64,000 nucleotides of DNA from Candidatus Omnitrophota bacterium (GTDB lineage Bacteria; Omnitrophota; Omnitrophia; Omnitrophales; JACQLI01). Position 1 is the first letter of the stretch. Each line of letters starts with the position of its first letter. The notes beneath the pieces are model-generated. The model had not been told where the DNA came from, ran no database searches, and was given only the letters and a program-made list of their open reading frames with translations. The position numbers were made by a program, and so were the translations under genes. The stretch is taken from positions 3,832 to 67,831 of the forward strand of contig JACPCP010000010.1 of NCBI GenBank assembly GCA_016179745.1. The letters are read 5' to 3'. Positions 1,617 through 64,000 of the stretch are shown here, piece after piece.

Positions 1617-1689
1617 CCCCTTTTTCGTCTGCAAGAAAGCCCTCCAGTTTTTGACGGACACTCGGCTATTCCATCATAGTAGCTAGTAA

Positions 1690-1878
1690 GGAGAAATTCT
1701 CCGGCGCTCTCGGCGCTCAGTCGCTTTGGATTCGGAAAGGTCTAAGGGCGATCTCGCTGGGGCCCCTCGCCGTTCCCCGTCCAATCTCTGCCCGGGGCCG
1801 GCGCTTCCCCCTAGCGATCTCGCCCAAGACTTTCTCGAATCCTCCGCGATTCGCGCCTCAAGCCCGGAGAATTTCTCC
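1690..1878. repeat. Two copies of a 13-bp palindrome GGAGAA(A/T)TTCTCC in a 500-bp non-coding region
   Basis: 1690-1702 GGAGAAATTCTCC and 1866-1878 GGAGAATTTCTCC. Both lie in the gene-free interval 1617-2145 upstream of the MFS transporter. Confidence 0.3.
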
Positions 1879-2145
1879 TTCTTAACGTCTCAAAGCTGGG
1901 AAGCCCCTCGCCACGGGCCGAATCGGATTCCCGGGTCTAGAAAATCTTGCGAGACGGCATGGGAAAGCCGGCGGCCCCCGTCCGGGGGAACGACGGAAGG
2001 GTTTTCCCGTGCCGGATCGCTTAGATTTTCTCCCGAGGAATCCGACTGAGGCCCGGGTGAGGGGCCTTCCCGGCTTAGGAACCGAGGCGAGAGGAGATTC
2101 TGCGGTGGGTGGGCATTTTGAGGAAAGGGGTCGATAAAGGAGTTT

Positions 2146-3330: not shown

Positions 3331-3345
3331 CGCCCACAGTCCTCT

Positions 3346-3582
3346 TTAAGCAGGCTGATAACGGGAGGCGTAGTGGTCCAGGAGCTCCCGAATCATTCGT
3401 TGATATTTCGTGTGATGTTTCCGGGCCTGATGTTTAAAGAACTCCACGCTGGAACGGTTTAATGAAAGGGTGACTTTAAGGGTCGGTTCCGGATAGGCCA
3501 GCTCACCCGGGGGCGGCAAAAAATCTTCGACGCGCCGCAGTTTTCCCATCGGCATGTCGGGGTCACGCATTTTCTTTTTCAT
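3346..3582 (-). CDS. brnA: BrnA antitoxin (RHH-type, COG3514-like)
   Basis: C-terminal KVTLSLNRSSVEFFKHQARKHHTKYQRMIRELLDHYA matches the BrnA family. It overlaps the 3' end of the upstream BrnT-like gene. Internal start MKKKMRD chosen. Confidence 0.6.
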   Translation of the reverse strand: MKKKMRDPDMPMGKLRRVEDFLPPPGELAYPEPTLKVTLSLNRSSVEFFKHQARKHHTKYQRMIRELLDHYASRYQPA

Positions 3583-3838
3583 AGTATCTTTTCCCCTTTC
3601 TCCAATACCCGGCACCAAAAATCCTGATCTTGCCGTGGCGGTAAACAAATCTGACGGTCAGAATCTCTCCTCCCGCTTTTCCGACACAAAAGTATCTTTC
3701 TTCGCCCCTGCCATGCTTGTCATCCTCGTAGATTTTTCTTCCCGGGTCCTGAAATACCCTGGAAGCTGTTGCGAAATCCACCCCGTGCTTCCAGAGATTG
3801 ATGAGATCCTTATGAGCGTCCCAAACGAAACTGCTCAT
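3563..3838 (-). CDS. brnT: BrnT toxin (DUF497/COG2929 ribonuclease toxin)
   Basis: 91 aa. WDAHKDLINLWKHGVDF...FQDP...EERYFCVGKAGG.ILTVRFVYRHGKIRIFGAGYWRKG matches the BrnT/DUF497 consensus. Forms a toxin-then-antitoxin pair with the downstream overlapping BrnA. Confidence 0.65.
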   Translation of the reverse strand: MSSFVWDAHKDLINLWKHGVDFATASRVFQDPGRKIYEDDKHGRGEERYFCVGKAGGEILTVRFVYRHGKIRIFGAGYWRKGKRYYEKENA

Positions 3839-4077
3839 GGCCTGCCGGCCTTGCGAAGGTTAGCACAGAACCTTACATTAGTAAATACTATTTTATGTAT
3901 CGTTTTATTGCCTGTGGGCATCAAAATACCCTCCCGACGTTTTTTGTCGCATTTGGTTTGGAGGGTGAGGCGGGGTGGCCGACTTTTACGGGGGACGTTT
4001 TACGCCCATAACCCTGTTGGTTTACGGCAGATTATAACGCACGAGGTGACTCAAGAAAAGGGCTTCGCGGTTTGGAA

Positions 4078-4266
4078 CTACTCGCCCGGGGCGGCGGAGA
4101 AGTGAGTGACCTCGTTTCCTTCAAAGCGGACTTCAAATTGAATCGGACGGCAGCAAATCTCGCAATCCTGCACGAACTCCTGCTTCTGTCCGCCGCTCGC
4201 ATCCAAACGCACGCTGAGCTCCTCCCCGCAGTGCGGACACGTGAAAGAACGGTCCTGCTCAATCAT
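4078..4266 (-). CDS. CPXCG-motif cysteine-rich zinc-ribbon protein
   Basis: 62 aa with two Cys pairs (CPHCG ... CEICC), matching the CPXCG small-protein family. Confidence 0.5.
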   Translation of the reverse strand: MIEQDRSFTCPHCGEELSVRLDASGGQKQEFVQDCEICCRPIQFEVRFEGNEVTHFSAAPGE

Positions 4267-4321
4267 AAATCAAGCCTGAGCTGAAAAACCGGACGGCGTC
4301 CGGTGGGGACGGGTTAGCCAT

Positions 4322-5350
4322 TCATTCGCTGACTCGGACGGCGAGGGAGTGGCTGAGGAGTTCTTGATTGACGTAGGTCTCGTCCACCCAAACATCGGCC
4401 AAGTAGCGGTCGTATTTGTCGGATTTGACGGTGCGGATGAGAATGGGAAAGGGCCTCGCAAGGAGGGTGGTGAGGAATTCCTTGGCCTCCCGGCCTTCGG
4501 CGGTTTCGATTTCGGGGGCGTCCAGGCCACGGAGACGGAGCTTTTGAGTCGTGGTGAATCCAAACCCGAGATCGATCAAGGCATAAAAGGTGTCGCCGTC
4601 GACGATGTGCCTCACGTAGGCCCGGTAGGTGAAGAGATCCTTCCCGGCGAACTCCCGGTGATTCTTCTTAACCTTCCCCTTCTCCAGCGTGACAATCTCC
4701 CCCGGCTTAAACCTGCCGAATTTTTCCGGACGGAAGAAACTTGAAAAGCCGAGGTCCAAGGCCAGTTCCTTTTTATAAGGACCGTCCACCGCCACCACCA
4801 CACGGTAGGTGCCCGGCTTCCCGAGAGTTGCAGTCAGAATGGGTTCAGAAATATTTTCTTCGGCTTGTCCCTTCGCCCGCTTCCGCCTACGGACCTCTTC
4901 ACGAAGCCGGTTGCGACTCCAGCCCTGGCGGACCGCCTCTTTGGCCACCGCTTCTCTTTCTTCGGGATCATTGAGCGCCAAAAGGGCGTGGTAATGACTC
5001 CAACTTAATTCGTCAGCTGGCTGACGAATTGGATAAGCCCGAGCAAATTGGAGCATATATTTTAGCTCGGTCTCGTTGGTTCCCAAATCCTGGGCGAGTC
5101 TGAGGATGACCTTTTCTCCATAATCCGCCCGCTCCTTATGCTGAAGCACGTGTTCGTCGATCAGCTTGCCGATCTCCCAGGCCTCACGCACTTTCTCTTG
5201 ATTGATTGCCTGGTCAATTCTCTTCTGGCTGGCGGTTTGGACCTCACGAATTCGACGTAAAAGCTCGTCGTAGGTTTGAATCTCTGGCTGTGCCGCAAAA
5301 ACCGGGAACGAGAATTGAAGGATGAGAAAGAAGGAGAGAAAAATCTTCAT
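4322..5350 (-). CDS. Secreted fusion protein: DUF1016 (YhcG) N-terminal domain + staphylococcal-nuclease-like (SNase/thermonuclease) domain
   Basis: Signal peptide MKIFLSFFLILQFSFPVFAAQPE. Middle region WEIGKLIDEHV...YGEKVILRLAQDLG...LKYMLQFARAYP...LSWSHYHALLAL matches DUF1016_N. C-terminus HIVDGDTFYAL...LRLRGLDAPE...DRYLADVWVD carries SNase catalytic motifs. Confidence 0.6.
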   Translation of the reverse strand: MKIFLSFFLILQFSFPVFAAQPEIQTYDELLRRIREVQTASQKRIDQAINQEKVREAWEIGKLIDEHVLQHKERADYGEKVILRLAQDLGTNETELKYMLQFARAYPIRQPADELSWSHYHALLALNDPEEREAVAKEAVRQGWSRNRLREEVRRRKRAKGQAEENISEPILTATLGKPGTYRVVVAVDGPYKKELALDLGFSSFFRPEKFGRFKPGEIVTLEKGKVKKNHREFAGKDLFTYRAYVRHIVDGDTFYALIDLGFGFTTTQKLRLRGLDAPEIETAEGREAKEFLTTLLARPFPILIRTVKSDKYDRYLADVWVDETYVNQELLSHSLAVRVSE

Positions 5351-48720: not shown

Positions 48721-49361
48721 TGTTGGGTCTCCTCCCTTTGGATAAATCGTTCTAGACTGAGAGCCACCTTTTGGTAAAAGTTTGAAACGGTTTGTTTCGT
48801 AAGATGATTCAGAAAAACAAAAATCCATCGCCCGAGGTGTTCCTTAAAAAAAGCCTCGGCGGCGTCCTCTTTCCCGGCTTGAAGCATTCGCCCCATAAAC
48901 TCGAGTTCGCAGGCCGCATGGTCCGGAAGTTCATGGAAGGCCGTCACCTTCCGAAATCCCTCGGCCTCATAAATCGTCTGCACCTGGACGGCTGATTCTC
49001 CGCCCAAGAAACCCTTCATTCCTTCGGGCAGGGATTCCGACCTGAAATAGCAGGAGTTTGCCGTCGACGTGTCAATGGTCAACCGATCGCAATAGTAAGA
49101 CTCATAAGGGGAGACCGCTTTCTCCCCGGGCGCCACAAAAAGTGAAGTATATTCCACAGCAATGTCGTCGACCCTCGCCGGCCAATCCGGATCTTCCAAG
49201 ATCGTAGTGTTGCCCGGAACCGCATCCCCGCTGAAACAGAAGGCAAGTGTCAGGAGTTTTTGCTCGGTAACCGATCGGAGGAGAGCGCCATCAGGCGCTT
49301 CCCGGAAAAGTCGGGAAAACAAAAAATAAACTGCGGTCTTTTCCTCAAGCTCGGCTGACAC
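48717..49361 (-). CDS. TorD/DmsD-family redox-enzyme maturation chaperone
   Basis: 214 aa helical. AVYFLFSRLFREAP...YTSLFV... matches the Nitrate_red_del/TorD family. Overlaps the Mo-subunit stop. Confidence 0.65.
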   Translation of the reverse strand: MSAELEEKTAVYFLFSRLFREAPDGALLRSVTEQKLLTLAFCFSGDAVPGNTTILEDPDWPARVDDIAVEYTSLFVAPGEKAVSPYESYYCDRLTIDTSTANSCYFRSESLPEGMKGFLGGESAVQVQTIYEAEGFRKVTAFHELPDHAACELEFMGRMLQAGKEDAAEAFFKEHLGRWIFVFLNHLTKQTVSNFYQKVALSLERFIQREETQQ

Positions 49362-51786
49362 GCACGCAGATTTCCTTATTCAGGGACTGGCCGGAGAGCG
49401 GACAGGCGATCGTCTTTGCAAGAAAGCCTGTGTGAGCGCCCCGGCCCTTGGCGATCTTTCCCATGGCCCAGTGTCCCCATCCGTGCTGTGTGCCGACAAC
49501 TTCTGGGTGGATCCCTTCAGTGAGTTCCGCCCGCATCTTGATTTTGCCATAAGGAGACTCGACCCAAACCCAATCCTTATCCTGAATTCCAAACTTTACC
49601 GCTGTCTTGGCGTTGATCCTGAGTCCGTCCGTTGCTTTGAGTTCCGCAAGAAAGGCGTTGTTCTGAGTGCGGGAATGCGTCTGCGATGCCTCTTTCCAGT
49701 TGATCAGGAAAAGGGGATATTCTTGACTTGGCTGCCACTCCCGTGGCTCGTAAACGGGAAGAGGGGCGAGATCATGTCCGGCTGCGTCTTTTTTCCCGAC
49801 ATGCTTCGCTGCGTAAAGTTCAAGCTTGCCAGAAGGCGTAAAAAAGCCATGGATTGCCGTCCCATCGGCTTTTAACATTCCCATCGGCTTGTCCTTGGTG
49901 CCATCCTTCTTCTTTGAAAAGGCAAGGTTTCCTTCGATCAAAGCATCCTTCAGCTTATCTCCCGGGACGGGATCAAGATGTTTGTGATACTTCGTCCCGT
50001 TCGGGCTAACCCACGTAGCGCCGGGGAGCGCCTTGAGCTCTTCCAGGGTGATCTTGGGTTCGCCTTCCTTAAGCTCTCGGCTCAGCCACTCCTCATACCA
50101 CCTCTTTTTGTCCTCAATCCGCTCGCCCGACGTCCGTCCGACCCAGAAAACGTCGTTGCCGTTCGCTTCCTTCAAGCCAAGCCGGCGACCGAGTTCTGAG
50201 ACAAACTCGTATTCCGCCGGCTGACCAAAAAGCGGTTTCACCACCGGTTGGCGAAGTCCCACCGCCGGCCATGTCACCCAGTGGGTATTTAAGTCGTAGC
50301 GTTCTAAATAGGTCGTCCCCGGGACCACGATATCGGCGAACTCAGCAGTTTCGCTTAACATGGTGTCCACGACGACAACGAATTCAAGATTCTTCAGGGC
50401 CTTCTCGGCATTCTTCGTGCCCGCCACCGACATCAAGAGGTTTTGGAAAACGATCATCGCCATCTTCGGCTGGTAGGGGCCCTTGCCGTCAACGAGTCGA
50501 TTGATGATCTCCATGTAAACACCCGATTTGTGGAAGTAGGGCCATTTGTCCTTGCCGCCGTCCAGGCGGGGTTCCTTCAAGGTTTTTGCCGCCACGGCGT
50601 CTGGCTCTACTTCAATGTGCTTACCGCCCTTCGCATTGGGGAGCACGAGGGTTCCCGGCTTCTCGATATTCCCCGTAATCGCAGCAAGCGCCCCAATCGC
50701 CCAACCGGCATACACTCCATTCGTATGATGGGTGCCTGACCAGACGTCGACTAAGGCGGGCTTCGTCGTGGCAAATTCTTTTGCCAGTCGTTCAATTCGC
50801 TCGGCGGGGACGGTGGTAATTACTTCAGCCCATTGAGGCGTTTTATCCTTGACGTATTCCTTAAATTGATCAAACCCCACAGTCCACTCATCAATAAAGG
50901 GTTGGTCCTGAAGATTATCACGAAGAATCACGTGCGCCAGGGCCAGCGCCAGCGCTCCATCCGTGGCCGGCCGAATCGGAACCCACTCATCGGCCCTGGA
51001 GGCCGTGTAAGAAAAGTGAGGATCTACAATCACAAGCTTGGCGCCCCGTTCCCTGCCCCGTGTGATGATCCGTGGCAAATGGGAAAATTTTGTTGCCGAC
51101 AGGGGATTCCAGCCGAAGATCAGCATGTATTTGGAGTTGAGGGCGTCGATCAGGGGGCGCTCATCTCCCATCAGGATCTTGAAGGAGGCCTTCCGCCCCG
51201 TATCACAAAGGTTGGAGTGCATGCTGTAGTTCGGCGTGCCGAAAAGTTTGCAGAAGTCGCCCTGAGGGTGGGTAAACGAGTGGTCCTCAGAGAACCAGAG
51301 AAGTTTGTGCGCCTCGCCGCCGTCCCGCAGTTTCTTGAGACGGTCGACAATTTCCGTGTAAGCCTCTTCCCAAGAGATCGCCTTCCACCGGGGATCCACA
51401 CCAATGCCTTTCTTGGAATTGGTCCGCCGCAAAGGCTGCTTCAGGCGATCAGCATCATAGAGCGCCATGATCCCGGCGTTTCCCTTCGGGCACATGACGG
51501 CCCCCTCTTTCGCTGCATTGGCAAAGAAGTCGTCCGAGATGTTGGAAAATCCAATGGGGTTGTGGGGATTGGGCTTGATCCGAAAGAGGCGCCCGCCCAC
51601 CACCTGGCACAGAATCCCCGTCTGCCCCCCGCACATGTTGCAGCAGGAAGGAATCCATTCGTCCTTATCATAAGGGCCCTTGAGCATCTCCTCTTGGGCC
51701 AAGGCCTGTGCGGTCTTGGTCAGCGTCCCGACACCCAAGAGACCCGCTCCGCTGAGTTTCAAGAATTTACGTCGATTAAGTTTCAT
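49345..51786 (-). CDS. Molybdopterin oxidoreductase catalytic subunit, DMSO-reductase family, Cys-ligand Psr/Phs/Ttr/Arr-like clade
   Basis: Tat signal MKLNRRKFLKLSGAGLLGVGTL. N-terminal FeS-cluster Cys cluster (SCCNMCGG...C). Likely Mo-ligand Cys in HSNLCDTGR. 813 aa with MGD-binding domains. Confidence 0.8.
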   Translation of the reverse strand: MKLNRRKFLKLSGAGLLGVGTLTKTAQALAQEEMLKGPYDKDEWIPSCCNMCGGQTGILCQVVGGRLFRIKPNPHNPIGFSNISDDFFANAAKEGAVMCPKGNAGIMALYDADRLKQPLRRTNSKKGIGVDPRWKAISWEEAYTEIVDRLKKLRDGGEAHKLLWFSEDHSFTHPQGDFCKLFGTPNYSMHSNLCDTGRKASFKILMGDERPLIDALNSKYMLIFGWNPLSATKFSHLPRIITRGRERGAKLVIVDPHFSYTASRADEWVPIRPATDGALALALAHVILRDNLQDQPFIDEWTVGFDQFKEYVKDKTPQWAEVITTVPAERIERLAKEFATTKPALVDVWSGTHHTNGVYAGWAIGALAAITGNIEKPGTLVLPNAKGGKHIEVEPDAVAAKTLKEPRLDGGKDKWPYFHKSGVYMEIINRLVDGKGPYQPKMAMIVFQNLLMSVAGTKNAEKALKNLEFVVVVDTMLSETAEFADIVVPGTTYLERYDLNTHWVTWPAVGLRQPVVKPLFGQPAEYEFVSELGRRLGLKEANGNDVFWVGRTSGERIEDKKRWYEEWLSRELKEGEPKITLEELKALPGATWVSPNGTKYHKHLDPVPGDKLKDALIEGNLAFSKKKDGTKDKPMGMLKADGTAIHGFFTPSGKLELYAAKHVGKKDAAGHDLAPLPVYEPREWQPSQEYPLFLINWKEASQTHSRTQNNAFLAELKATDGLRINAKTAVKFGIQDKDWVWVESPYGKIKMRAELTEGIHPEVVGTQHGWGHWAMGKIAKGRGAHTGFLAKTIACPLSGQSLNKEICVRVSRA

Positions 51787-51795
51787 GATTCGCTC

Positions 51796-52635
51796 TTACA
51801 ACAAGTAGTAGACATTCGGCTCGGTTCCAAGTTCCTCTTTCAAACGAGTCCACTTCCGATGGGTGATCAATTCGTTCAAATTGCATCCATGCCCGATACA
51901 CCGCCCTGTGAGAAAATCGCCGAAGTGAATGGCTTTTCCCATGCAGGTTTCAGCGCATGCTGTCGGACGGGTGTATTGCCCGCTGGCATCCTGGAGATGA
52001 AGGCAAAAGGTGCATTTGCGGGCATTTCCGATCGGGGCTTTCGCCTTTTCACGCAATCCATACTTGCTGTGAAATTCCGGCGAAGGAATATTCCCATATT
52101 CTGTTTCCTGGGCAGGGTAATTTTTCCCCTCATCGAAAATACGAGCTCCATAGGGACAGGCGGGGATACAGTCGCCGGCACCAATACACTTGTCATGATC
52201 GACGAGAACAATTCCGTCTTCCTCCCGTTTGTAGGTTGCACCGACCGGGCAGACATCAATACAGGGCGGTTTCTCACAATGAAAACAAGGCCGGGGGAAC
52301 CAGCGGCGTTGGACATCGGGAAATTCGCCAACCTCTTCTTCAATCACAGGATTGTAAGTAACGCCCGGGGGGGTTTTATTCTCAAGTTTACAGGCGGCGG
52401 TGCAGGCCTCGCAGTTCACACAACGTTTGAGATCAATCGTCATCCCGTAACGAAACTTCTTCTTGGTGGTGAAGTTCTCAGCGGCCTCGACGATCTCGGC
52501 TGGGAGGGCAGCGATCGCTGAGGCGACGACTCCGATACCGGCCAGCTTTAAAAAGGACCGTCGCCCCAACTCCTGGTCCACTGTCTCTTGGAGGGTTAAT
52601 CGTTTCTGGGCCATTTGCGGTTCATCTTCGGTCAC
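51796..52635 (-). CDS. 4Fe-4S ferredoxin-type electron-transfer subunit of the molybdoenzyme (DmsB/PsrB/TtrB-like)
   Basis: Own Tat signal GRRSFLKLAGIGVVASAIAA. Four ferredoxin-like CxxCxxCxxxC(P) motifs. No TM helix. Confidence 0.8.
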   Translation of the reverse strand: MTEDEPQMAQKRLTLQETVDQELGRRSFLKLAGIGVVASAIAALPAEIVEAAENFTTKKKFRYGMTIDLKRCVNCEACTAACKLENKTPPGVTYNPVIEEEVGEFPDVQRRWFPRPCFHCEKPPCIDVCPVGATYKREEDGIVLVDHDKCIGAGDCIPACPYGARIFDEGKNYPAQETEYGNIPSPEFHSKYGLREKAKAPIGNARKCTFCLHLQDASGQYTRPTACAETCMGKAIHFGDFLTGRCIGHGCNLNELITHRKWTRLKEELGTEPNVYYLL

Positions 52636-52694: not shown

Positions 52695-53585
52695 ATGGAA
52701 ATCCGGGAACTCAAGATCTTTAGAGACATCGCCCAGGAAAAAAACTTTGTCAAGGCAGCCAAGCTGAACTTCCTCACCCAGCCCTCCATCAGCTCTCACC
52801 TAAAACACCTCGAAGAAGAGCTTGGGGTGCGCCTTTTTGAGCGGGTCCCTCGAAAAGTTAAGCTGACCCACGAAGGCGAGCTCCTGCTGCCCCACGTCGA
52901 GGAAGTGCTCCTGAAATGCGGGAACCTGAAAACCTTGATTTCACGATTAAGCGGCATCCCCAAGGGCGATATCCGGATTGCAACGGTTTACAGCATCGGA
53001 ATGTATGAATTGGCCCCGGCCCTCAAACAATTTATCCGCACGTATCCGGACATTCATGTCCATCTTCAATACCGCCGTTCGGATATCATCTATGATCTGC
53101 TTCTTGAGGATAAAATCGACCTCGGCATGGTGGCTTACCCGGAGGACCGGGTCAAGATCAAAGTCACGCCTTTTGGCAATGACCACCTCGTTTTAATTAC
53201 CCCTCCCCATCATCCCCTTGCCAAACAGAAAAGCATCCGCCTCAAACGGATCGAGGGAGAGAACTTCATCGCCTTCGATTCGGGTATTCCGACACGAGAG
53301 ACGGTGGATCAGACGCTCGAACAGCGGGGAATCAAAGTCCAAGTCCGGATGAGCAATGAGAACATTGATACGTTGAAACGGGCCGTCGAGGTGGGACTGG
53401 GTATCTCGATTGTCCCCAGCAAGACCATCACCGAAGAGGTTCGGAAGGGAACCCTGAAGAGTGTTCATCTCAGTGATGTCAAGCTGAACCGGCCTCTCGG
53501 TATCCTCACCTTAAAAGATCGCATCCCCAGTTATCCCCTTCAGCTTTTTATGGAAGTGCTAACGGACCACGCTTCGAGAACCTAG
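52695..53585 (+). CDS. LysR-family transcriptional regulator
   Basis: N-terminal HTH (IRELKIFRDIAQEKNFVKAAKLNFLTQPSISSHLKHLEEELGVRLFER) and a C-terminal LysR substrate-binding domain. Divergent from the molybdoenzyme operon. Confidence 0.8.
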   Translation: MEIRELKIFRDIAQEKNFVKAAKLNFLTQPSISSHLKHLEEELGVRLFERVPRKVKLTHEGELLLPHVEEVLLKCGNLKTLISRLSGIPKGDIRIATVYSIGMYELAPALKQFIRTYPDIHVHLQYRRSDIIYDLLLEDKIDLGMVAYPEDRVKIKVTPFGNDHLVLITPPHHPLAKQKSIRLKRIEGENFIAFDSGIPTRETVDQTLEQRGIKVQVRMSNENIDTLKRAVEVGLGISIVPSKTITEEVRKGTLKSVHLSDVKLNRPLGILTLKDRIPSYPLQLFMEVLTDHASRT

Positions 53586-54736: not shown

Positions 54737-55189
54737 TCACAACTTCACGTAAATAGCAGAGGCGAGCCCCCGATCGACGGAGAACTGGCTCCAGCCGATC
54801 TGGAAAACATAGGAAGGAAACCGCTGAAGCAGGGTGATCGGAGATCCCGGCAGAACTCCGATCGCAATCAGCTTTTTGAGCCGTTGGGGATCCTGCATTT
54901 CCAGATGGGTGACTTCGGCCTTCTGATTCACCGGGAGGGATGAAAGCGGAAGGCAGGTCACTTCTCCCGAAAAGGGGACAGGCCCCTGGGCCATTGGCGA
55001 TCCTGGACCTGTCCCCTTTTCTGTGCGAAAAAGGCCGAACAGTTTTTTCATCCATTCCGGCTGGGGCACTATTTCGTAATAACAGTAAGGGCAGCGCACC
55101 CCCTGACAGCCCTTGACGAATCCGCAGGCCGAACAGGTCTGACGCCCCTGGCTTTCCTCAAACTCCCGTTTACAAAGATCGCAAATCAT
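54737..55189 (-). CDS. feoA: FeoA-domain protein with N-terminal zinc ribbon
   Basis: Internal Met start. MICDLCKREF...CSACGF...CPYC is a 4-Cys ribbon. C-terminal SH3-like FeoA domain (AEVTHLEMQDPQRLKKLIAIGVLPGSPITLL). ATGA start/stop overlap with the feoB stop. Confidence 0.65.
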   Translation of the reverse strand: MICDLCKREFEESQGRQTCSACGFVKGCQGVRCPYCYYEIVPQPEWMKKLFGLFRTEKGTGPGSPMAQGPVPFSGEVTCLPLSSLPVNQKAEVTHLEMQDPQRLKKLIAIGVLPGSPITLLQRFPSYVFQIGWSQFSVDRGLASAIYVKL

Positions 55190-57216
55190 AACACCGCCCC
55201 CAACCGCACCAGGATTTGATTCAGCACAAAGGCAAACCCGAAAGAAAAAAAGAGGATGAAAATGGAAATCCCGACCCCGGTCTTCCATCCCCGCTCCTTG
55301 ACATTCATTAGGAATTGCGCAATGCAGGGCAGGAAAAGGGTCAGAGCCACACAGGCCACCAGCATTTGGACGCCGTCCAACCGGCCCTTCGACACGAGGT
55401 CATAGAGGCCGGCGGCCCCGTAATCCCGCCTGAAAAAGCCCATCAAAAAGATCGAGGCCGCCTCCGCCGGAAGACCGATCGCCCGGACCGGGACCGCCAG
55501 GCCTCGAATCAAAAAACCGAAAAGGCCCGTCAACTGCCCGAGCCAGATCAAGGCGCTCGCCACAATGAACAAGGGGAGAACTTCCGTGAAATACCATTTG
55601 ACCCGGACATAGGTTTTTGTAAGCACATGAGAAATTTTGGGCCAGCGGAGCGGGGGCAATTCCATGTAAAACGAGGGCCGTTCGCCCGGCAGGATCTGCG
55701 CCGTGAGAAATCCGATGAAAAGAAAGACAAGGCCCACGACGAACGCCCAAAGAAGAAGCGCCCGGTCGTGACCCGCCAAAACGGCAAAGATCACCCCGAG
55801 CTGCGCCGAACAGGGGATGGCCAGAGAAAGAAGCAGGGTCGAGATGATCCGCTCTCTCACCGTCGGCAGGGTGCGGGTCACCATCGTGGCCATCGTGTCA
55901 CAGCCGAATCCCAGAACCATCGGTATCACGGCCCGGCCGCTCAGCCCGATTTTCTTAAAGGTCCGGTCGAGGAGCATGGCGAGTCTCGGGAGGTAGCCCG
56001 TATCCTCAATGACGGCGAAGACGGCAAAGTAGAAGGTGACGATGGGGAGAATAAGGGCCACCGCATACCTCACTCCGAGTGTCAGCATTCCATACTCGCC
56101 GACAAAGAGATCCTGAAGGAGCGGCCAGGGAAGGATCCTTGAGAAGACCTTGACGAAGAAAGGGTTCAGGAACCCTTCAAAGACCGTGCCTTCGAGGAAA
56201 TCGACGACGGTCCCCGCCCCGAACACACCCACGAATTGGTAAAGTCCCCCATACAGCACAAAGAAAAGGATCGGAAATCCCGTCAGGGGATTCATTGTAA
56301 GGCGGCTTAAGAATTCCCCCCACCTCCCGGAACGGACATCGGACCTCCAGGACCGTTTTTTGGTTCGGCATACATTTTCCGAAATCCGGGCCGCCCGGCG
56401 TTTGAGGCTTGATGCGATTTCAAATTCAAGCGGGGCCTGAAGATGGTTTTTTAATTCGCTGGCAAGCGCCTCCGCAATCTCCAAAACCAGAGGTTCCTGT
56501 TTCTTAACCAGCGACCGCACCTCCTCGTCCCCTTTGAGGAGAAGCAGTGAGAGAGACCGCTTTGAAATCGGATACTCGCCCGCCAGGGACTCGCCGATCC
56601 TTGCCAGAGCGCCCTCCAGCGAGACCGGCGCCCGGCCGTCATAATTCACCGTCGTTCCACGGAGGGAGGGTGATTCCGCTTCCAATCCGGTTAAGTGACG
56701 GACAGCTGTCTTGAGCTCTTTGAGGCCCTCGCCCGTCGTCAGCACGGTCTCGAGAACTGGGATGCCCAAGTCCTGAGTCAGGGCCTTTTGATGGATTCCG
56801 ATCCTCAGGCGCCGGGCCTCATCCATCATGTTGAGGACCAGGATCGTCGGGAAGGCGGCCTCGATCAATTGAAGCGTCAAGGGAAGCAGCCGTTCCAGAT
56901 TCTTTGCATCCACCAGGTGGATCACCAGAGAGGGCTTTTCCTTAAAAAGGATTCTTCGTGCTACGCCCTCCTCCTCCGTCAGGGGCGAAAAGGAATAAAT
57001 GCCGGGCGTGTCGATCACCTCGAAAGAGACGCCGTCGATTTTCGCCTTTCCCCGGGAAACTTCCACGGTCGTGCCCGGGTAATTGGCCACGGTGACATAA
57101 CGGCCTGTAAAGTGGTTAAAGAGCAGGCTTTTCCCGACATTGGGGCTGCCGACAATCACCACCTTCTTCAATCCCGAGCTGGTTTTATCCTGTTTGTGAT
57201 CGCAGCAAGCTTCCAT
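55186..57216 (-). CDS. feoB: Ferrous iron transporter B
   Basis: N-terminal G-domain (GSPNVGKS, DTPG) plus a polytopic membrane domain with gate motifs. 676 aa. Confidence 0.9.
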   Translation of the reverse strand: MEACCDHKQDKTSSGLKKVVIVGSPNVGKSLLFNHFTGRYVTVANYPGTTVEVSRGKAKIDGVSFEVIDTPGIYSFSPLTEEEGVARRILFKEKPSLVIHLVDAKNLERLLPLTLQLIEAAFPTILVLNMMDEARRLRIGIHQKALTQDLGIPVLETVLTTGEGLKELKTAVRHLTGLEAESPSLRGTTVNYDGRAPVSLEGALARIGESLAGEYPISKRSLSLLLLKGDEEVRSLVKKQEPLVLEIAEALASELKNHLQAPLEFEIASSLKRRAARISENVCRTKKRSWRSDVRSGRWGEFLSRLTMNPLTGFPILFFVLYGGLYQFVGVFGAGTVVDFLEGTVFEGFLNPFFVKVFSRILPWPLLQDLFVGEYGMLTLGVRYAVALILPIVTFYFAVFAVIEDTGYLPRLAMLLDRTFKKIGLSGRAVIPMVLGFGCDTMATMVTRTLPTVRERIISTLLLSLAIPCSAQLGVIFAVLAGHDRALLLWAFVVGLVFLFIGFLTAQILPGERPSFYMELPPLRWPKISHVLTKTYVRVKWYFTEVLPLFIVASALIWLGQLTGLFGFLIRGLAVPVRAIGLPAEAASIFLMGFFRRDYGAAGLYDLVSKGRLDGVQMLVACVALTLFLPCIAQFLMNVKERGWKTGVGISIFILFFSFGFAFVLNQILVRLGAVL

Positions 57217-57221
57217 TGAGT

Positions 57222-58073
57222 TTATCTTTTAGCTTTCTTTTTCCAAAAGTGATCGAAACTGATCGAAAGGCCGGCAATAACGGCCTGTTCGGGCTTCTCA
57301 TTATTCGTAAGGCCGGCCCTCCAAGCCAGATCCAATAAGACGTTCGGGCTCACCTGAAAGGTCAAACCCACGAGCGGATTCAAACGGTGGTGGTTTGAGG
57401 CGTCCGCATCAAAATGCCCTCCCTTTTCTCCGTAGAGTTCTCCCGCAACCTTCCACCGGTCCGAGAGTTTGTATTCAGAGGCAACTCCATAGATCAAGTA
57501 GTCCCTTAAGGCCTCGTCTTTGTCATCTCCTACAAAGGCATACCCGGCATTACCGTGCACGGTGAGGTTTTTAATCATCTTCGATACGACCCCCACAAGT
57601 TGGACGTCTTCATCGCCGCTTCCGAGGCCCTTGGCTTCGTTCCCGTTTGCAAATTTTACCACGATCTTCAGAAGCGCAGCCGGTATAAACTCCTTCTCCG
57701 GAAAAATCTGGGTCTTTGTAATTAAACTGATATCCGACCAGCCTTCCACATTCTTCCCCTCTTCAGGCCGGAGGAAGCTTGCGGGAAAATCGGCCGAAAC
57801 CTCGAGCCGATCCGTAAGGCCCAGGATGGGGGTCGTCGTTAACGAGAATTCCTCATCTTGATTCTTGTCCGCATACTGGATTCCTTCTTCCAGCTGGAAT
57901 ACCCAGCGGCCGGCGACTCCGGCATCCTCGGTTGCGAAAGGCCGGCCGGCATACCCCGAAGGCATCTCAAGGCCTCCTTCCCCGAAAAGGAGAAAGAGCC
58001 CGGCCGCCCCCCAGCCCAGCCACCCGAGGGACCTCACCCCGCTCCAAGGCCTCAGTTTGATATTGAGAATCAT
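57222..58073 (-). CDS. Putative outer-membrane beta-barrel protein (transporter/MetA-pathway-like family)
   Basis: N-terminal signal-like hydrophobic segment. Alternating amphipathic strands rich in G/Y/D. Lies between the large barrel gene and feoB in the same strand string. Confidence 0.4.
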   Translation of the reverse strand: MILNIKLRPWSGVRSLGWLGWGAAGLFLLFGEGGLEMPSGYAGRPFATEDAGVAGRWVFQLEEGIQYADKNQDEEFSLTTTPILGLTDRLEVSADFPASFLRPEEGKNVEGWSDISLITKTQIFPEKEFIPAALLKIVVKFANGNEAKGLGSGDEDVQLVGVVSKMIKNLTVHGNAGYAFVGDDKDEALRDYLIYGVASEYKLSDRWKVAGELYGEKGGHFDADASNHHRLNPLVGLTFQVSPNVLLDLAWRAGLTNNEKPEQAVIAGLSISFDHFWKKKAKR

Positions 58074-58158: not shown

Positions 58159-60249
58159 TTACCAGCCGAGGGTAAATTCTAACGAGAACAGGTGGGCGAG
58201 GTAATCCCCTACTTCCGCATCGGCATTCGCCTTGTAAAGGGAGTATCCATACTCGGGCGAGAGGGTCAGGCGCTCATTCACCGCCCATTGGAGGCCCAAG
58301 GTCAAGTCGACCCGGTCAAAGTCGGCCCCCATCGGGATTCCCCGATCCGAAAAATCGTCGAAGTTCCGGGCGTGGGTGAGAAGAAAGGAAGTGGTCGTCG
58401 TCAGGTTGGGCCGGGGAAAATAATTGACCGAAAAAAGCCAGGTGTTGGAGTCCGCCGTAAAACGAGGAATGGCAGTCGTGGCGTTGGAAGCGGCGGCCGG
58501 GGAAACAACCGAGAGGAGCTGCCGGGAGAAAGCGGTCGTCAAAAGAAAATCAGCAGAGGGCTGGTAGGAGAGATCCAGGGTCACTGTTTGTGAATTGGCA
58601 TCCGAATCGACAGCAACCTCATTCTCTGCCCGGGATCGGTCGTCCTCAAGGCGAAGCTGGTAGCGAAAAGAGGGGCGAACCCGGATCCAGGACGTGAGGG
58701 TGGTCCGGAAGGCATATTCCGTAATGTCGACATCCAGCTCATCGTAGAAAGCAGACCGGGCCGTGCTCCCTGTGGGATCGGTTTCACGGGTATCGTCATA
58801 ATCATTGTTACTCCAACGCTGCCTCACGTGGGTCGTCAAATCCAAGTGATCCGTGGGAAGGATCCGGGCGCCCAGGGTCCAGACTCCCCGGCCGATATGA
58901 GTGATGGTTTCACGGCTGAAAGTGTCATTGGCGCTCGCAGCGGATTGGCCCGCAAGGCTTAGCCGGTCCTCACTCAGCCAGTTTCTGGCCTGCTCAAATT
59001 CGAGCTCTCCATAAAGGGCGGTGCGGGAGATTGAGGTATTTCGGAAGGAAATACTTTCTCCGAAGCGGTAGATATTGCTGTCAGTAACGCTTCGTGCGGT
59101 GGTATTGATGATGCCGTCCGGGGCGCCCGCCGTGGTGTCATCGGGGTAAAGGGAGTTTCCGTGGCCGATGATCCTTTCGGTCTTCAGTCTCCCCACCAGA
59201 TTGGTGGATGGCCAAAGATTCCAGAGGTAACTGGCCACCCAGGTGTGGGAGTCGTAGTCATTGTCCGCACGAGCATTCCGGATCTGCTTCGGATTAGCGA
59301 AATTGGTCACCACCCGGTTCTCATTCATCTCAAAGATATTTTCCATTTCTTGATTGTTGAGATGGACATAGCGGTAGGCGACGCCGCCGAATTTCTTTTC
59401 ATCCTTGGACCAGCGTTCCGCCTCAAGCGTGGTGGACATAAACCGGGCCTGAGGTTCCTGGATCTGGTTTCGGATCTTCCGGTCAGCGGCGGCGGCCGTC
59501 GTGGAACGCCACCTTTCCTCCCGCATCAGTTCTGATTTCGAAATTTCCCACTTTTGTTCTCCCTTGACATCGAAACCCTGAATCTTTTGTTCCATGCGGA
59601 GGCCAAAAATATCCACCACCTCCTCAATCTCCTGAAAGGCCGGGGCAATGTAACGGATAATGCTGCCTTCGGTGACCCCGGCCCAGGTGAGACGGGACTT
59701 GATACCGTCCTTAAACTCTCTTTCATAAAAGAAAACCGTGTCCGGGAGCTTTCCCAGATCGAGCCCCACCTCCAGGGCCAAATGCCCGATCTCAAGCTCA
59801 AGCTCCCGGTCCACATTGGCCGATTTGAAGGTGGTGAATCGCCGGTAAGCGCCCCCCGTGTTGTCATAAAAACGGCTAAATTCCTTGTAGTCGAGATGGA
59901 GAAAGCCAAAATCTTCCTTTTCGATCTCCAGCTCCCCCTTGAGATCGTTCTCGTCAATGAAGGCGTGGCCTTCGGAAACCATGGAAATTTTCTCTTCGGG
60001 ATTGGCGGAGTAAAGTGAGAACTCTTTGATGCCCCCTACATAGTTGTCCTTGATCCAATGGTGGGCTTCGAATTTTCTCTCGTCTCCGCTCACGGAAGTG
60101 AATCGAAGAGGCGCGGGGGTGATCGAGACTTCACTTTCGGCCGCCAGGGCCTGAGAAGCCATAAGCAATGCGAGAAAGGAGGAAAATATAAAGAAAATCA
60201 CGGTGCTTCCTGCGGGCCGTATCGTGTTTTTCTTCCCGGAATTAATCAT
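58159..60249 (-). CDS. Large outer-membrane beta-barrel protein (MtrB/PioB-like by size and context)
   Basis: Signal peptide (internal Met MINSGKK...ALLMASQALA). About 697 aa, rich in alternating aromatic/polar strands. C-terminal ...FSLEFTLGW ends in an aromatic residue. No TonB plug motifs. Start overlaps the octaheme cytochrome stop. Confidence 0.45.
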   Translation of the reverse strand: MINSGKKNTIRPAGSTVIFFIFSSFLALLMASQALAAESEVSITPAPLRFTSVSGDERKFEAHHWIKDNYVGGIKEFSLYSANPEEKISMVSEGHAFIDENDLKGELEIEKEDFGFLHLDYKEFSRFYDNTGGAYRRFTTFKSANVDRELELEIGHLALEVGLDLGKLPDTVFFYEREFKDGIKSRLTWAGVTEGSIIRYIAPAFQEIEEVVDIFGLRMEQKIQGFDVKGEQKWEISKSELMREERWRSTTAAAADRKIRNQIQEPQARFMSTTLEAERWSKDEKKFGGVAYRYVHLNNQEMENIFEMNENRVVTNFANPKQIRNARADNDYDSHTWVASYLWNLWPSTNLVGRLKTERIIGHGNSLYPDDTTAGAPDGIINTTARSVTDSNIYRFGESISFRNTSISRTALYGELEFEQARNWLSEDRLSLAGQSAASANDTFSRETITHIGRGVWTLGARILPTDHLDLTTHVRQRWSNNDYDDTRETDPTGSTARSAFYDELDVDITEYAFRTTLTSWIRVRPSFRYQLRLEDDRSRAENEVAVDSDANSQTVTLDLSYQPSADFLLTTAFSRQLLSVVSPAAASNATTAIPRFTADSNTWLFSVNYFPRPNLTTTTSFLLTHARNFDDFSDRGIPMGADFDRVDLTLGLQWAVNERLTLSPEYGYSLYKANADAEVGDYLAHLFSLEFTLGW

Positions 60250-60251
60250 TT

Positions 60252-61091
60252 TTAATAGCGCAGATGTTCGTCGAAATTGGAACCGTGCATCCCCGTGTGG
60301 CACCCGGCGCTAAAGCAAGTTCCCTGCGGCAGTCGGGCGGCGTGGCTTGATTTTCCGATCGTCGGAAAATTCACTTGGGTATGGCAGCGAAGGCAGAGCG
60401 TGCTGTCCCGGGCCATCAGGAGGCTCGGATGGATGGAGCCATGGACCTTGTGGCAGGTCGTGCATCCTTCCCGGACCGCCTCATGTTCAAAGACAAAAGG
60501 GCCCCGCTGTTCTTTGTGGCACTTGAAGCAAGCTTCATTCATATCGTTCAGGGTGGTTGCCGACCAGGGACGGACCTCGGCACCGTGAGCGCTGTGACAA
60601 TCCGTGCAACTGACCTTCCCCTCCAGAACAGGATGGTGGTAAGGGAGACGAAACTCGATTTTCTTATCCAAGTGGCAGTTAAAGCAGGCGCTGGGATCCC
60701 GTTTCGGATTGATAATCGTCTGGCGTTTCCCTTTTTTGTCTGTGTCGCTCGCCTCGACGTGCAGGCTGCCCGGCCCGTGACACATTTCGCAGCCTTGGGC
60801 CTTAACTTTTTCACCCGGGACGGAAATCCGGGAATGGGTGGAGAGACGGAATTCCTTCGCCTCTTTCTCGTGGCAGAGGACACAAGTGTCCGTCCCGACA
60901 TATTCAGCGGTAACAGATTCCTTTGCCTTGATCGCCTTCGGCGCTTCGGAAGGAGGACCTCTTTCACCTTCGGATTCCGGCCAAACGGGGCTTGGGAATA
61001 GGGCCAGGAAAAGCGTCAATGAAAGAATTGAGCAAAACGGCAAGATCCAACGGCGGGACGGGAGCAGCGGAAAAGACTTTTTGGGGATCAT
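60252..61091 (-). CDS. Periplasmic multihaem (octahaem) cytochrome c
   Basis: Signal peptide after internal Met MIPKKSF. Seven CxxCH motifs (CVLCH, CEMCH, CFNCH, CTDCH, CFKCH, CTTCH, CLRCH) plus one CX4CH (CFSAGCH), in about 280 aa. Confidence 0.75.
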   Translation of the reverse strand: MIPKKSFPLLPSRRWILPFCSILSLTLFLALFPSPVWPESEGERGPPSEAPKAIKAKESVTAEYVGTDTCVLCHEKEAKEFRLSTHSRISVPGEKVKAQGCEMCHGPGSLHVEASDTDKKGKRQTIINPKRDPSACFNCHLDKKIEFRLPYHHPVLEGKVSCTDCHSAHGAEVRPWSATTLNDMNEACFKCHKEQRGPFVFEHEAVREGCTTCHKVHGSIHPSLLMARDSTLCLRCHTQVNFPTIGKSSHAARLPQGTCFSAGCHTGMHGSNFDEHLRY

Positions 61092-61258
61092 CTCGGCTAT
61101 TTTTGTTTGCTTAATATTACGGCCGGTTGCCGTTTTGCCTCTAGTGACCCGTGTCACAGATCTGACGGCCTGGTGCATTATGCCATTGGGCTAAATGCTT
61201 CGGATGAGATTATCGCAAAGGATAGTAGATTTAATAAATTGATTTTTCTTCTCTAACC

Positions 61259-61315: not shown

Positions 61316-62780
61316 CTAATCCGACCCGCCGGTGTGGCAATCGGTGCAGGCCATTTCCTTCCAGGTCTCGCCGATGTCTTCCGGATGTTTAAATTCAAGC
61401 CCCTCCGAAGCCCGCTCCGGCTGGGCGGCCGGCCCCTGTTCAATGATGCTGTGGCAGACGGCGCACTCGTTCCGGATCACCTTCCCCTCCTCTGTCTGAT
61501 GTAACCCATCGTGGCAGCGGAAGCAGCCCGGAAAGATAAAGTGGCCGATGTTGTTCGGGTATTCCTTCCACGAGACTTTCATATTGGGAAAAAAGTTGGT
61601 CCGGTAAATTTCCTGGACCGCCTTGACGGTCCGTTCGATCCTTTTTTCCTTCTGGGCCCAGATTTCGGGATACTTCGTTTGGTAAAAATTTTCCAGGTGA
61701 CTCCGGACCCCGGCCAGGGCCGCCTCCGGGGACGGGTAATCGCCCAAAAGCGCCTTCACCGCCTCCCGTTTGACGTAGGGAAGCGAACGGTCGATGACGC
61801 CGTAACTCATCGCTTCATTGACCGCCTTGGAAGGAGACTTGAAGATATGGCTCGGGCGGTTGTGGCAGTCCATGCAATCCATCCGGCGCAATTCGCCCTT
61901 CGGCAGATTCGTGGCTGAAAGACCCGATCCTTTCTCGACAAAAACCTCCTCTCGGCCATCCGGTCCGATCTTCTTGACCCAGGGGATGACCTGCCGCTTT
62001 TCGTCGGTGGCCACGTAATAAACCTGGTTATTGATGTTCATGTGCCAATGGATCCCCTCTTTCCTGCCGTAAGGAGGGATGCCGCCCCCGACAAACATCA
62101 GCATCCGGGTTTTCCATTCCGTATTGGTCTCGTCGGGTAAAAAGTATTCCCGGTCCTGCTCCACAGCGCCGAAAAATTGACGGGGCCAGTGACACTTCTC
62201 GCAGGTCTCCTGCGCCGGGCGAAGGTTTTTAATGGGGGTCTTGATCGGCTTCGAATATTTTTTTGTCAAGACAGAATAAATTTGATAGGACGGGTCCGAT
62301 GTGACATTCGGCGCAGGCCACCCGGGCATGGGGAGAATTGTGATACGCCACATATTCCGGCTGCATGACTTGATGGCAAAGACGGCCGCAAAAGGCCGTC
62401 GATTCCGTAAACTCGTAGGCCCGGTAGGTCCCAACCATCGTAAAGAGCAAAAAGAGGGTGCAAACCCCAATGGTGGTGAAAGCCCACTTTTGATGGATGG
62501 GATTGTTGAAATCGATTTGCGGAAACCGCCGGACGTAACCCCGCTTAAAGCGCCTCTTCCTCTCCCTCCAGGCACCGAGAGGAATGATGATGAGGCTCGT
62601 GACCAGAAACCCCGGCAAAATGAGGTAGGTGATGGCCCCCAAATAGGGGTTGGTCTCTTTGGCCCAGAAATCCAGGACAAAGAGGAAGAGGAGGACGGCA
62701 AACAGGAAAACCGAAAGAATGCCGCCGATGACACTGATCCAGTTTTGGAAATAGTTTTCCTGCTTCGGGAAAGAGTCCAT
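61316..62780 (-). CDS. Inner-membrane heptahaem cytochrome c with NapC/NirT-like N-terminus (ImcH-like), interrupted by an apparent frameshift at an A7 run
   Basis: Frame A (62229-62780) encodes 3 TM helices plus CGRLCH and CAECH, then stops 10 codons after an A7 run (62258-62264). Frame B continues from the same run with KKYSKPIK...CEKCH, CMDCH, CFRCH, CAVCH, CTDCH down to 61316. The joined product is about 487 aa with 7 haems. Confidence 0.5.
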
Positions 62781-62810
62781 CCGTCACCTTTTCTATAAAC
62801 TATCGGCATC

Positions 62811-62890
62811 CCCTAAAGAAAAGGGGACAGGCACCTTTAAGGGGACACCCATTTTTGCCTGTCCCCCTAAAGGTGCCTGTCCCCTGAACT
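62811..62890 (-). terminator. Compound palindromic terminator downstream of the tetrahaem cytochrome gene
   Basis: Minus strand: GGGGACAGGCACCTTTAGGGGGACAGGCAAAAATGGGTGTCCCCTTAAAGGTGCCTGTCCCC followed by TTTTCTTT. Preceded by three CTGAACT direct repeats at 62883-62910. Confidence 0.5.
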
Positions 62891-62909: not shown

Positions 62910-63359
62910 TTATCCCTGCGGAACCGGGTGTTTGATCTTTTCCCAGTATTCTGCGTAATTAAAACTTTTGAAGGTCGGCGCTTCCGGATTGTGACACTTC
63001 TGGCAGGTCTTTTCATCCGGCACAACCAGCCCCGCCTCAACGGCGGCCGCCTCATCTTCCATCACGCTTTTCTTCATATAATCCTTCCCCGGGCCGTGGC
63101 AGGATTCGCAGGAAACGCCTTCTTCAACAGGAATCGCTGCCGTGACGACCGCCTCGGTAAACCCATAAGCGGTGGAATGACACTTCAGGCACTTCCCGTC
63201 CGTCTGGGGATTCTCAACGCCCTTTTGAGCACCCTGCGCTTTCGCCTCCGGGGTTCCCAGGGTTTCAAAGGCCTTGGCGTGCCCGGATTCCTGCCAGATA
63301 CGGACCTGTTCCCCCTGTTCCGGTTTTTTATGGCAGATGGCGCACTTGGTGGAGCCCAC
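62910..63359 (-). CDS. Tetrahaem cytochrome c domain protein (no signal peptide of its own)
   Basis: Four CxxCH motifs (CAICH, CLKCH, CESCH, CQKCH) in 149 aa. GTG start. Begins 10 nt after the cyt b stop in a different frame. No hydrophobic N-terminus. Confidence 0.65.
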   Translation of the reverse strand: MGSTKCAICHKKPEQGEQVRIWQESGHAKAFETLGTPEAKAQGAQKGVENPQTDGKCLKCHSTAYGFTEAVVTAAIPVEEGVSCESCHGPGKDYMKKSVMEDEAAAVEAGLVVPDEKTCQKCHNPEAPTFKSFNYAEYWEKIKHPVPQG

Positions 63360-63369
63360 AAACTCATGT

Positions 63370-64000
63370 TCAAACTGGGCACGTTTTCTTTGATTCCGAC
63401 AAATAACCCATCATCCCAAGCACCAGGAGTGAAAGCACCACAAGAATCCCGATCGTCATCGCTACCGGCCGCTTGAGCGGATGACGCTCCTTGGAACGGT
63501 CGATAAAAGGCCAGATAAATAGAAAAAGGGGCGCCAGCGAGACAATAAAAATGCCCACGAGCTTCGGGAAATATTTGATCACCTGATACATGGGCAGAAA
63601 ATACCACTCGGGCTTGATGGCAAAGGGGGTCTGGAGCGGGTCGGCCTTTTCGCCCAACTCAAAAGGGGCCAGAATGGCCAGGGTGACCAGAAGACCCAGC
63701 AGGAGATAAAATACCATCCCTTCCTTCGTGACATGATGGGGAAAAAAGGGGATGCCTTCTCCGGGCTTGGGCTTTTTCTCCTGGCCGACCGGCTCCAGGG
63801 TGGCAATCCCCTGAAACCGGACAAGGACCAGATGAAACAGGACAATAAAGAAAACAGCCCACGGAAGGACGATGACGTGCACCACAAAAAACCGGGAGAG
63901 CGTCTCTCCGCTCACACTCTCTCCTCCCCTCAAAAGGGTCTTGATCCACTCACCGGCCCCGGGAATGGCGCCGGCCACCTCGGTCCCCACGGTCGTGGCC
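63370..64000 (-). CDS. Cytochrome b of a bc-type complex (C-terminal part incl. PEWY loop, b6/subunit-IV-like 7-helix type), N-terminus outside window
   Basis: IKPEWYFLPMYQ is the PEWY motif, followed by two more TM helices. The upstream part matches helix D/E of cyt b. The open frame continues past the window end. Confidence 0.7.
   Translation of the reverse strand, partial: ATTVGTEVAGAIPGAGEWIKTLLRGGESVSGETLSRFFVVHVIVLPWAVFFIVLFHLVLVRFQGIATLEPVGQEKKPKPGEGIPFFPHHVTKEGMVFYLLLGLLVTLAILAPFELGEKADPLQTPFAIKPEWYFLPMYQVIKYFPKLVGIFIVSLAPLFLFIWPFIDRSKERHPLKRPVAMTIGILVVLSLLVLGMMGYLSESKKTCPV

Follow-up and report, generated by a model that had tools for sequence, protein, structure and literature searches.

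ImcH is a multihaem inner-membrane cytochrome defined by three transmembrane (TM) helices, by homology with NapC/NirT and by seven haem motifs, of which the first is CX3CH and the other six are CXXCH (PMC4251993; PMC6295460). What is known of its biochemistry and genetics comes from Geobacter only (PMC4251993; bioRxiv 10.1101/2023.05.03.539133). In GSU3259, the ImcH of Geobacter sulfurreducens, the TM helices span residues 13-35, 45-67 and 100-122 and the haem motifs lie at 132, 156, 205, 311, 428, 448 and 486 (PMC6295460 Table S3); Gln179 is the distal ligand of haem 1, and Glu127, Lys173 and Tyr188, all conserved and protonatable, belong to the presumed menaquinol site (bioRxiv 10.1101/2023.05.03.539133). 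The family is already known and has already been reported in the phylum Omnitrophota: the Omnitrophica homologues OGX39360.1, OGX46065.1 and OGX49280.1 are 505 amino acids (aa) long and have three TM helices, and their seven haem motifs lie at 135/159/208/317/434/454/494 (Zhong & Shi 2018, PMC6295460 Table S3). Here we analyse a stretch of 64,000 nucleotides (nt), called the window below, taken from the 91,612-bp contig JACPCP010000010.1 of a Candidatus Omnitrophica genome bin (GCA_016179745.1), in which an imcH-family gene of the minus strand (positions 61316-62780) is split over two reading frames. The lesion is almost certainly a deletion of 35 nt, and not an insertion or deletion (indel) in the run of seven adenines (A7) at which the initial annotation had joined the two frames.

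Position of the break in imcH

Translation of the minus strand bore out the earlier proposal that one gene extends over two frames. An ATG at 62780 opens an open reading frame (ORF) of 183 codons ending at 62229, which encodes three hydrophobic helices and the motifs CGRLCH and CAECH; a second frame, open to the stop codon at 61316-61318, carries the five further CXXCH motifs that had been attributed to it (CEKCH, CMDCH, CFRCH, CAVCH and CTDCH). The fragments comprise 183 and 324 codons, and the single uninterrupted gene of about 495-520 codons characteristic of the ImcH family is absent from the window. In the public record the 5' piece is MBI2167027.1 (183 aa, 'NapC/NirT family cytochrome c') and the 3' piece MBI2167026.1 (317 aa, 'hypothetical protein HYU34_02140'). 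Pfam places the former in PF03264 NapC/NirT (27.5 bits, cut-off 24.1) and the latter among multihaem c3/c7-type families. The locus is composed as follows:

62292 to 62780, minus strand: native imcH-family codons 1-163, with the TM helices, the CX3CH motif (C131-H136) and CAECH (C156-H160), ending ...CHIGP; identical to residues 1-163 of the intact protein P0123
62290 to 62291, minus strand: point at which the 35 nt are missing; the Gly164 codon keeps its first base alone (62291), codons 165-175 are lost, and the Ser176 codon begins with 62290
62229 to 62291, minus strand: out-of-frame tail of the 5' fragment, translated as 20 aberrant codons, VLSNLFCLDKKIFEADQDPH, and then a stop
61316 to 62290, minus strand: native imcH-family codons 176-499 and stop, identical to residues 176-499 of P0123
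62258 to 62264, minus strand: A7 run, in frame with the 3' part, ACA AAA AAA TAT = Thr184-Lys185-Lys186-Tyr187
62267 to 62269, minus strand: TTG, the NCBI start of the 317-aa MBI2167026.1, natively Leu183

The 3' frame also stays open across the out-of-frame 5' region, forming a minus-strand ORF of 497 codons at 61316-62809 that starts with an ATG at 62809. Its first approximately 170 residues are meaningless, and a naive longest-ORF call would return a protein of plausible length and wrong identity.

The 35 nt missing at 62291|62290, GGGCGAGCTGGTTCGTCCGGTCCAAGCTTGCCGGT, were recognized by comparison with a 92% relative (L001) and with Logan contigs of the same strain. Two of the latter, L002 (run SRR12113433, 3,336 nt) and L003 (run SRR12113390, 2,031 nt), match the window at 100% identity to either side of the gap and contain the 35 nt; BLASTN of these contigs against the window located the gap. 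Both encode the intact 499-aa protein P0123, which consists of window codons 1-163, the 12 missing residues and the 3' frame of the window from Ser176, with zero substitutions. Because the loss equals 12 codons minus one base, residues 164-175 are gone, the frame is shifted and the gene appears as two ORFs. The 3' piece (61316-62290) retains the haem-1 distal ligand Gln178, Tyr187 and the CXXCH motifs at 205, 314, 431, 451 and 490 (numbering of the intact protein).

An alternative location of the break had been proposed at the A7 run, where the gene would be split by a +1/-1 indel or by slippage, be it through an error in sequencing, through phase variation or through a programmed frameshift. 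The run does lie at 62258-62264 as described, the first ORF does stop ten codons beyond it, and a +1 shift on AAA AAA A formally connects the two frames. However, the two frames already part at 62291|62290, 26 nt ahead of the first base of the run, and in the alignment of homologues the downstream frame is native and family-conserved for the nine codons before it. The run itself is undamaged: it is also A7 in the intact alleles L002 and L003, its length is constant in every contig compared, and it encodes the conserved pair Lys185-Lys186, which L001 specifies as ACG AAA AAA TAC and which is conserved across the alignments. Since the intact and the interrupted allele do not differ in the length of A7, slippage, phase variation and a homopolymer indel are excluded as the origin of the split, and we regard a break at the run as wholly improbable. 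The 487-aa protein obtained by joining the frames at A7 is consequently not the product of this gene, which has 499 aa: the join is without 12 conserved residues, among them the invariant G164, W167, K172 and G175, and nine more are replaced by the out-of-frame VLSNLFCLD, with loss of the haem-1 ligand Gln178.

Comparison with homologues supports the location at 62291|62290. A search with the 487-aa join retrieved thousands of homologues, nearly all of about 495-510 aa; the closest has 499 aa and 92% identity with E = 0, so that the homology is far beyond chance. We also examined 80 species-level loci from many phyla, the 80 closest in a genome scan, with no Geobacter among them. All 80 of these loci from other species are open in one frame, a check that the initial annotation had suggested, and a gene split like that of the window was found neither among them nor among the top 120 homologues. 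The missing segment is among the most conserved of the family: CH...Q is always 20 residues long, with the Lys and the Gln present in 80/80 of these best 80 loci, and G164, W167, K172 and G175 are invariant in an alignment of 13 diverse homologues. In the window sequence, K172 falls inside the deleted 35 nt, Q178 and Y187 lie in the other frame, and all six CXXCH motifs are present over two frames, with the spacing from 156 to 205 shortened. The aberrant 20-codon tail has no counterpart in any homologue aligned.

Identity of the intact protein

The architecture attributed to the gene from the beginning, with three TM helices, one CX3CH and six CXXCH motifs and NapC/NirT homology, is that of P0123, and its motif positions nearly coincide with those of GSU3259. 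The haem motifs of the intact allele are found at 131 (CX3CH, CGRLCH 131-136), 156, 205, 314, 431, 451 and 490. Kyte-Doolittle analysis places TM helices at 11-43, 46-72 and 98-119, all of which are contained in the 5' fragment of the window. The NrfH model TIGR03153 matches the intact protein with an E-value of 8e-13. The N-terminal 180 aa of the Geobacter ImcH, in a slightly lossy sequence derived by optical character recognition, are collinear with P0123 at 39% identity (E 3e-38), and for the C-terminal two thirds the comparison with GSU3259 used published motif positions alone. The 39% identity falls inside the range of 31.5-49% published for non-Geobacter homologues (PMC6295460). On these grounds the locus very probably represents a single-gene, inner-membrane cytochrome of the ImcH family.

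The resemblance to the Geobacter protein (Levar et al. 2014, PMC4251993; Pimenta et al. 2023) thus comprises three N-terminal TM helices with the CX3CH motif next to the third, six CXXCH motifs at near-identical positions and a NapC/NirT-like region that takes in TM3 and the first haems. It extends to the residues around haem 1, as E126, H136, K172, Q178 and Y187 of the intact allele are the equivalents of Geobacter Glu127, His137, Lys173, Gln179 and Tyr188. An own transcript has been reported for GSU3259, and here a terminator-like hairpin precedes the gene. The differences concern the Omnitrophota host, the length (499 aa versus 507 aa) and the genomic position between an operon for a bc complex and an MtrA/MtrB-like pair; moreover, in this record the gene is interrupted and the equivalent of Lys173 is lost. 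The Omnitrophica homologues mentioned above come from the same phylum and have the same architecture, likened here by published motif positions, and belong to different genomes. NrfH and CymA, of the NapC/NirT type, share with P0123 the membrane-proximal quinol site at haem 1, Lys82 of NrfH aligning with K172 and Asp89 with Q178. They have, however, one TM helix and four haems, versus three and seven here, and the similarity is weak (PDB 2J7A chain C, NrfH, E 0.0055).

By analogy with Geobacter, menaquinol oxidation and periplasmic electron delivery, in the service of acceptors of high potential, may be ascribed to the intact protein. Menaquinol would be oxidized at haem 1 on the periplasmic face, and the electrons would pass down the chain of seven haems to cytochromes of the periplasm.

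The deletion, if it is real, would remove the quinol-site lysine and detach the membrane anchor, with its two haems, from the remaining five. One could envisage that the split is functional, the dihaem anchor being joined by a soluble pentahaem subunit that is translated on its own, as the annotation of two proteins by NCBI (MBI2167027.1 and MBI2167026.1) would imply. Haem is attached to c-type cytochromes in the periplasm, so that an unexported piece would miss the maturation machinery. The initial annotation had asked whether the downstream piece has a start and a signal peptide of its own: it has the TTG only, which lies in a native Leu codon and is not preceded by a Shine-Dalgarno-like sequence, and the piece contains neither a signal peptide nor a TM helix or other hydrophobic segment. 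With a TTG start only, and neither signal peptide nor TM helix, the 3' piece would not be exportable for haem attachment. Such a split occurs in 0/80 loci of other species and in 0/120 top homologues, and the conserved quinol-site Lys is deleted. A pair of functional subunits is thus an extremely unlikely interpretation of this locus.

A second deletion upstream of imcH

Comparison with same-strain contigs revealed a further deletion, of 145 nt, located 1,090 bp from the 35-nt deletion and with a positional ambiguity of 1 nt. It affects two genes:

63380 to 63382, minus strand: junction of the 145-nt deletion, with loss of the 29 final cytochrome b codons (358-386) and of codons 1-20 (signal peptide) of the c554-like gene
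62910 to 63359, minus strand: remnant of a c554-like tetrahaem cytochrome, 149 aa, GTG start, first haem Cys at residue 6
63370 to 64000, minus strand, running off the window: cytochrome b of a bc-type complex (Pfam PF00032, PF13631, PF00033)

Six Logan contigs from six runs (L096-L101) have flanks 100% identical to the window and the same extra 145 nt at about 63381. They encode the intact c554-like protein P0218 (176 aa, MKRYFLLLTAFLISTAPGALA...), whereas the public record holds the 149-aa form without signal peptide, MBI2167028.1. The latter is, as judged from its sequence, a truncated, non-exportable version of the 176-aa protein; the Omnitrophota orthologue found in contig L005 has a signal peptide. 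The cytochrome b of the window ends in CPV*, which is c554 sequence read out of frame as a result of the 145-nt deletion; the intact protein encoded by L096 has 386 aa.

Assembly defect or real allele

An assembly error and a pseudogenising mutation had both been offered as explanations of the split; these survive as general options, and the homopolymer as their cause does not. From the comparison of assemblies we favour the view that the split in the record is probably a local assembly or scaffolding defect of the bin, and not a property of the organism. The 35 nt would have been dropped from the bin record at 62291|62290, with loss of residues 164-175 and a shift of frame; the 145-nt deletion would be a defect of the same kind, and the genes of the population would be whole. 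The deletion alleles are present in zero independent assemblies, and the intact alleles in two runs (35 nt) and six runs (145 nt) belonging to one accession series. The NCBI record of the bin is the sole source of the truncated products, with 183, 317 and 149 aa. No gene position on record carries the exact 183-aa product, and its 90% cluster holds it from NCBI alone; a junction-spanning pattern permitting either allele gave no match in JGI metagenome contigs. Logan contigs (at least 12 runs, same accession series) cover 23,683 bases of the window, and these contain no other indel and only a handful of single-nucleotide polymorphisms. Two window proteins of 1,532 aa and 503 aa are not on record either, which is uninformative, as the contigs may be too short and the choice of start may differ. 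An artefact is favoured because two deletions without repeats lie close together, are unseen in independent assemblies and affect genes that are otherwise unchanged. The situation resembles the assembly errors and frameshifted gene calls of metagenome-assembled genomes, where a small isolated deletion yields two adjacent ORFs of one family, with independent assemblies of the same population intact and a second lesion nearby; here such a cause is proposed from the comparison of assemblies.

Several observations weigh against an assembly defect. De Bruijn and other k-mer assemblers seldom invent a deletion without a flanking repeat, and clean microhomology is lacking at the 35-nt junction and limited to 1 nt at the other; k-mers across the junctions may thus be present in actual reads, which would mean a real variant. 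Elsewhere the bin matches the independent assemblies without error and is not a generally poor assembly. The end of the Logan contig L092 lies 25 nt away from the 35-nt junction, which could reflect heterogeneity of alleles in that run. Furthermore, the link of the bin and of the runs SRR121134xx/390 to the groundwater study of He et al. 2021 (PMC7906910; assembly with MEGAHIT, then scaffolding with IDBA-UD) is an unconfirmed inference.

The junctions without repeats, the accuracy of the rest of the bin and the end of L092, together with the position of both lesions within one respiratory gene cluster, speak for the possibility that both deletions are genuine. A strain or sub-population would then carry null alleles, with imcH, the C-terminus of cytochrome b and the export signal of the c554-like cytochrome recently destroyed, and sister cells would keep the pathway. 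We consider this somewhat unlikely. Besides the absence of the deletion alleles from every independent assembly and the intact alleles with 100% identical flanks in two and six runs, there are zero substitutions across 1.46 kb of a supposedly dead gene, and any real deletion would therefore have to be extremely recent. Moreover, two microhomology-free deletions within 1.1 kb, with none in the other 22 kb compared, form an unlikely mutational pattern.

Two routes of deletion were tried as candidates. A hairpin-mediated event is rejected, as the 35-nt segment with its flanks folds as DNA no better than shuffled sequences (z = -0.31). A microhomology-mediated event lacks clean support: copies of CCGG are present 33 nt apart but the loss is of 35 nt and the junction cannot be shifted; at the 145-nt junction the ambiguity is 1 nt.

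Were both deletions real, one Omnitrophota groundwater population would be segregating a very recent loss of the ImcH quinol oxidase and of the adjacent cytochromes of the bc complex. That a doubly deleted lineage among 100%-identical intact sister cells represents a natural, segregating loss of a route of electron transfer, extracellular or periplasmic, with genetic linkage to a divergent MtrAB-like outer-membrane conduit is a proposal that we hold to be unlikely. With the favoured assembly defect, what had appeared as a phase-variable split cytochrome would be a 35-nt gap in one bin record, accompanied by another of 145 nt, and the population would have ImcH, cytochrome b and the c554-like cytochrome all intact. 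A metabolic reconstruction from the bin would wrongly score the three proteins as truncated, and the c554-like one also as non-exported. The case also teaches that the 'repair' of a frameshift at the nearest homopolymer can yield a wrong protein.

Genes surrounding imcH

On the minus strand the gene order is cytochrome b, c554-like cytochrome, inverted repeat, imcH, 308-aa cytochrome, 696-aa barrel, MetA-like outer-membrane protein and FeoB/FeoA. The elements closest to imcH, apart from the upstream genes given above, are the following:

62822 to 62885: inverted repeat separating the c554-like gene from imcH; its arms of 26 nt are 96% complementary and enclose a loop of 12 nt, and a T-rich stretch follows
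60252 to 61178, minus strand: eight-haem periplasmic cytochrome, 308 aa, related to DmsE/MtrA (TIGR03508, E 1e-48, 166 bits)
58159 to 60249, minus strand: 696-aa secreted protein, predicted large beta-barrel (AF2 mean pLDDT 87.5)

Contig L096 extends the same strain past the end of the window. In its positions 1359-4703, genes whose start and stop codons overlap encode a multihaem cytochrome of 410 aa, a Rieske protein, the intact cytochrome b (386 aa) and the intact c554-like cytochrome (176 aa). By its gene content, the operon upstream of imcH is one for a bc-type complex with multihaem partners. Among the best 80 loci, cytochrome b is found near imcH in 38 and the c554-like gene in 23. All Logan contigs break inside the inverted repeat at 62822-62885. 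Its resemblance to an intrinsic terminator suggests that imcH probably has its own transcript.

An MtrAB-type porin-cytochrome module combines a large outer-membrane barrel of the MtrB fold, with about 26 strands, and a periplasmic multihaem cytochrome of the MtrA/DmsE type from an adjacent gene. Downstream of imcH, the 308-aa cytochrome scores 166 bits with TIGR03508, below the cut-off of 192, and has eight haem motifs (seven CXXCH and one CX4CH) versus ten in MtrA/DmsE. The 696-aa protein has no match in Pfam (MtrB_PioB included) or NCBIfam. It belongs to a family of about 90 members, of which all named ones are 'hypothetical proteins' of Omnitrophica. The best PDB match of its model is MtrB (6R2Q chain B, E 6.7e-12, TM-score 0.62/0.66), with TonB-dependent receptors at about 0.42, and the protein is thus predicted to be most similar to the MtrB barrel. 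We found no MtrC-like outer cytochrome in the cluster. In the genomes surveyed by Zhong & Shi (2018, PMC6295460), mtrAB/mtoAB were reported not to be adjacent to imcH. An ImcH-type gene directly beside an MtrA/MtrB-like pair in Omnitrophota is of some, if mild, biological interest.

Next to this pair, on the minus strand, are genes for FeoB/FeoA ferrous-iron uptake and for a MetA-pathway-like outer-membrane protein (54737-57216 and 57222-58073). These neighbours hint that the cluster may handle iron redox and uptake.

Farther along the minus strand (49345-52635) are genes for a molybdopterin oxidoreductase (813 aa) and a 4Fe-4S subunit (279 aa), then for a NarJ-like chaperone. This set looks like another respiratory module on the contig, and a divergent gene for a LysR regulator (52695-53585, plus strand) adjoins it.

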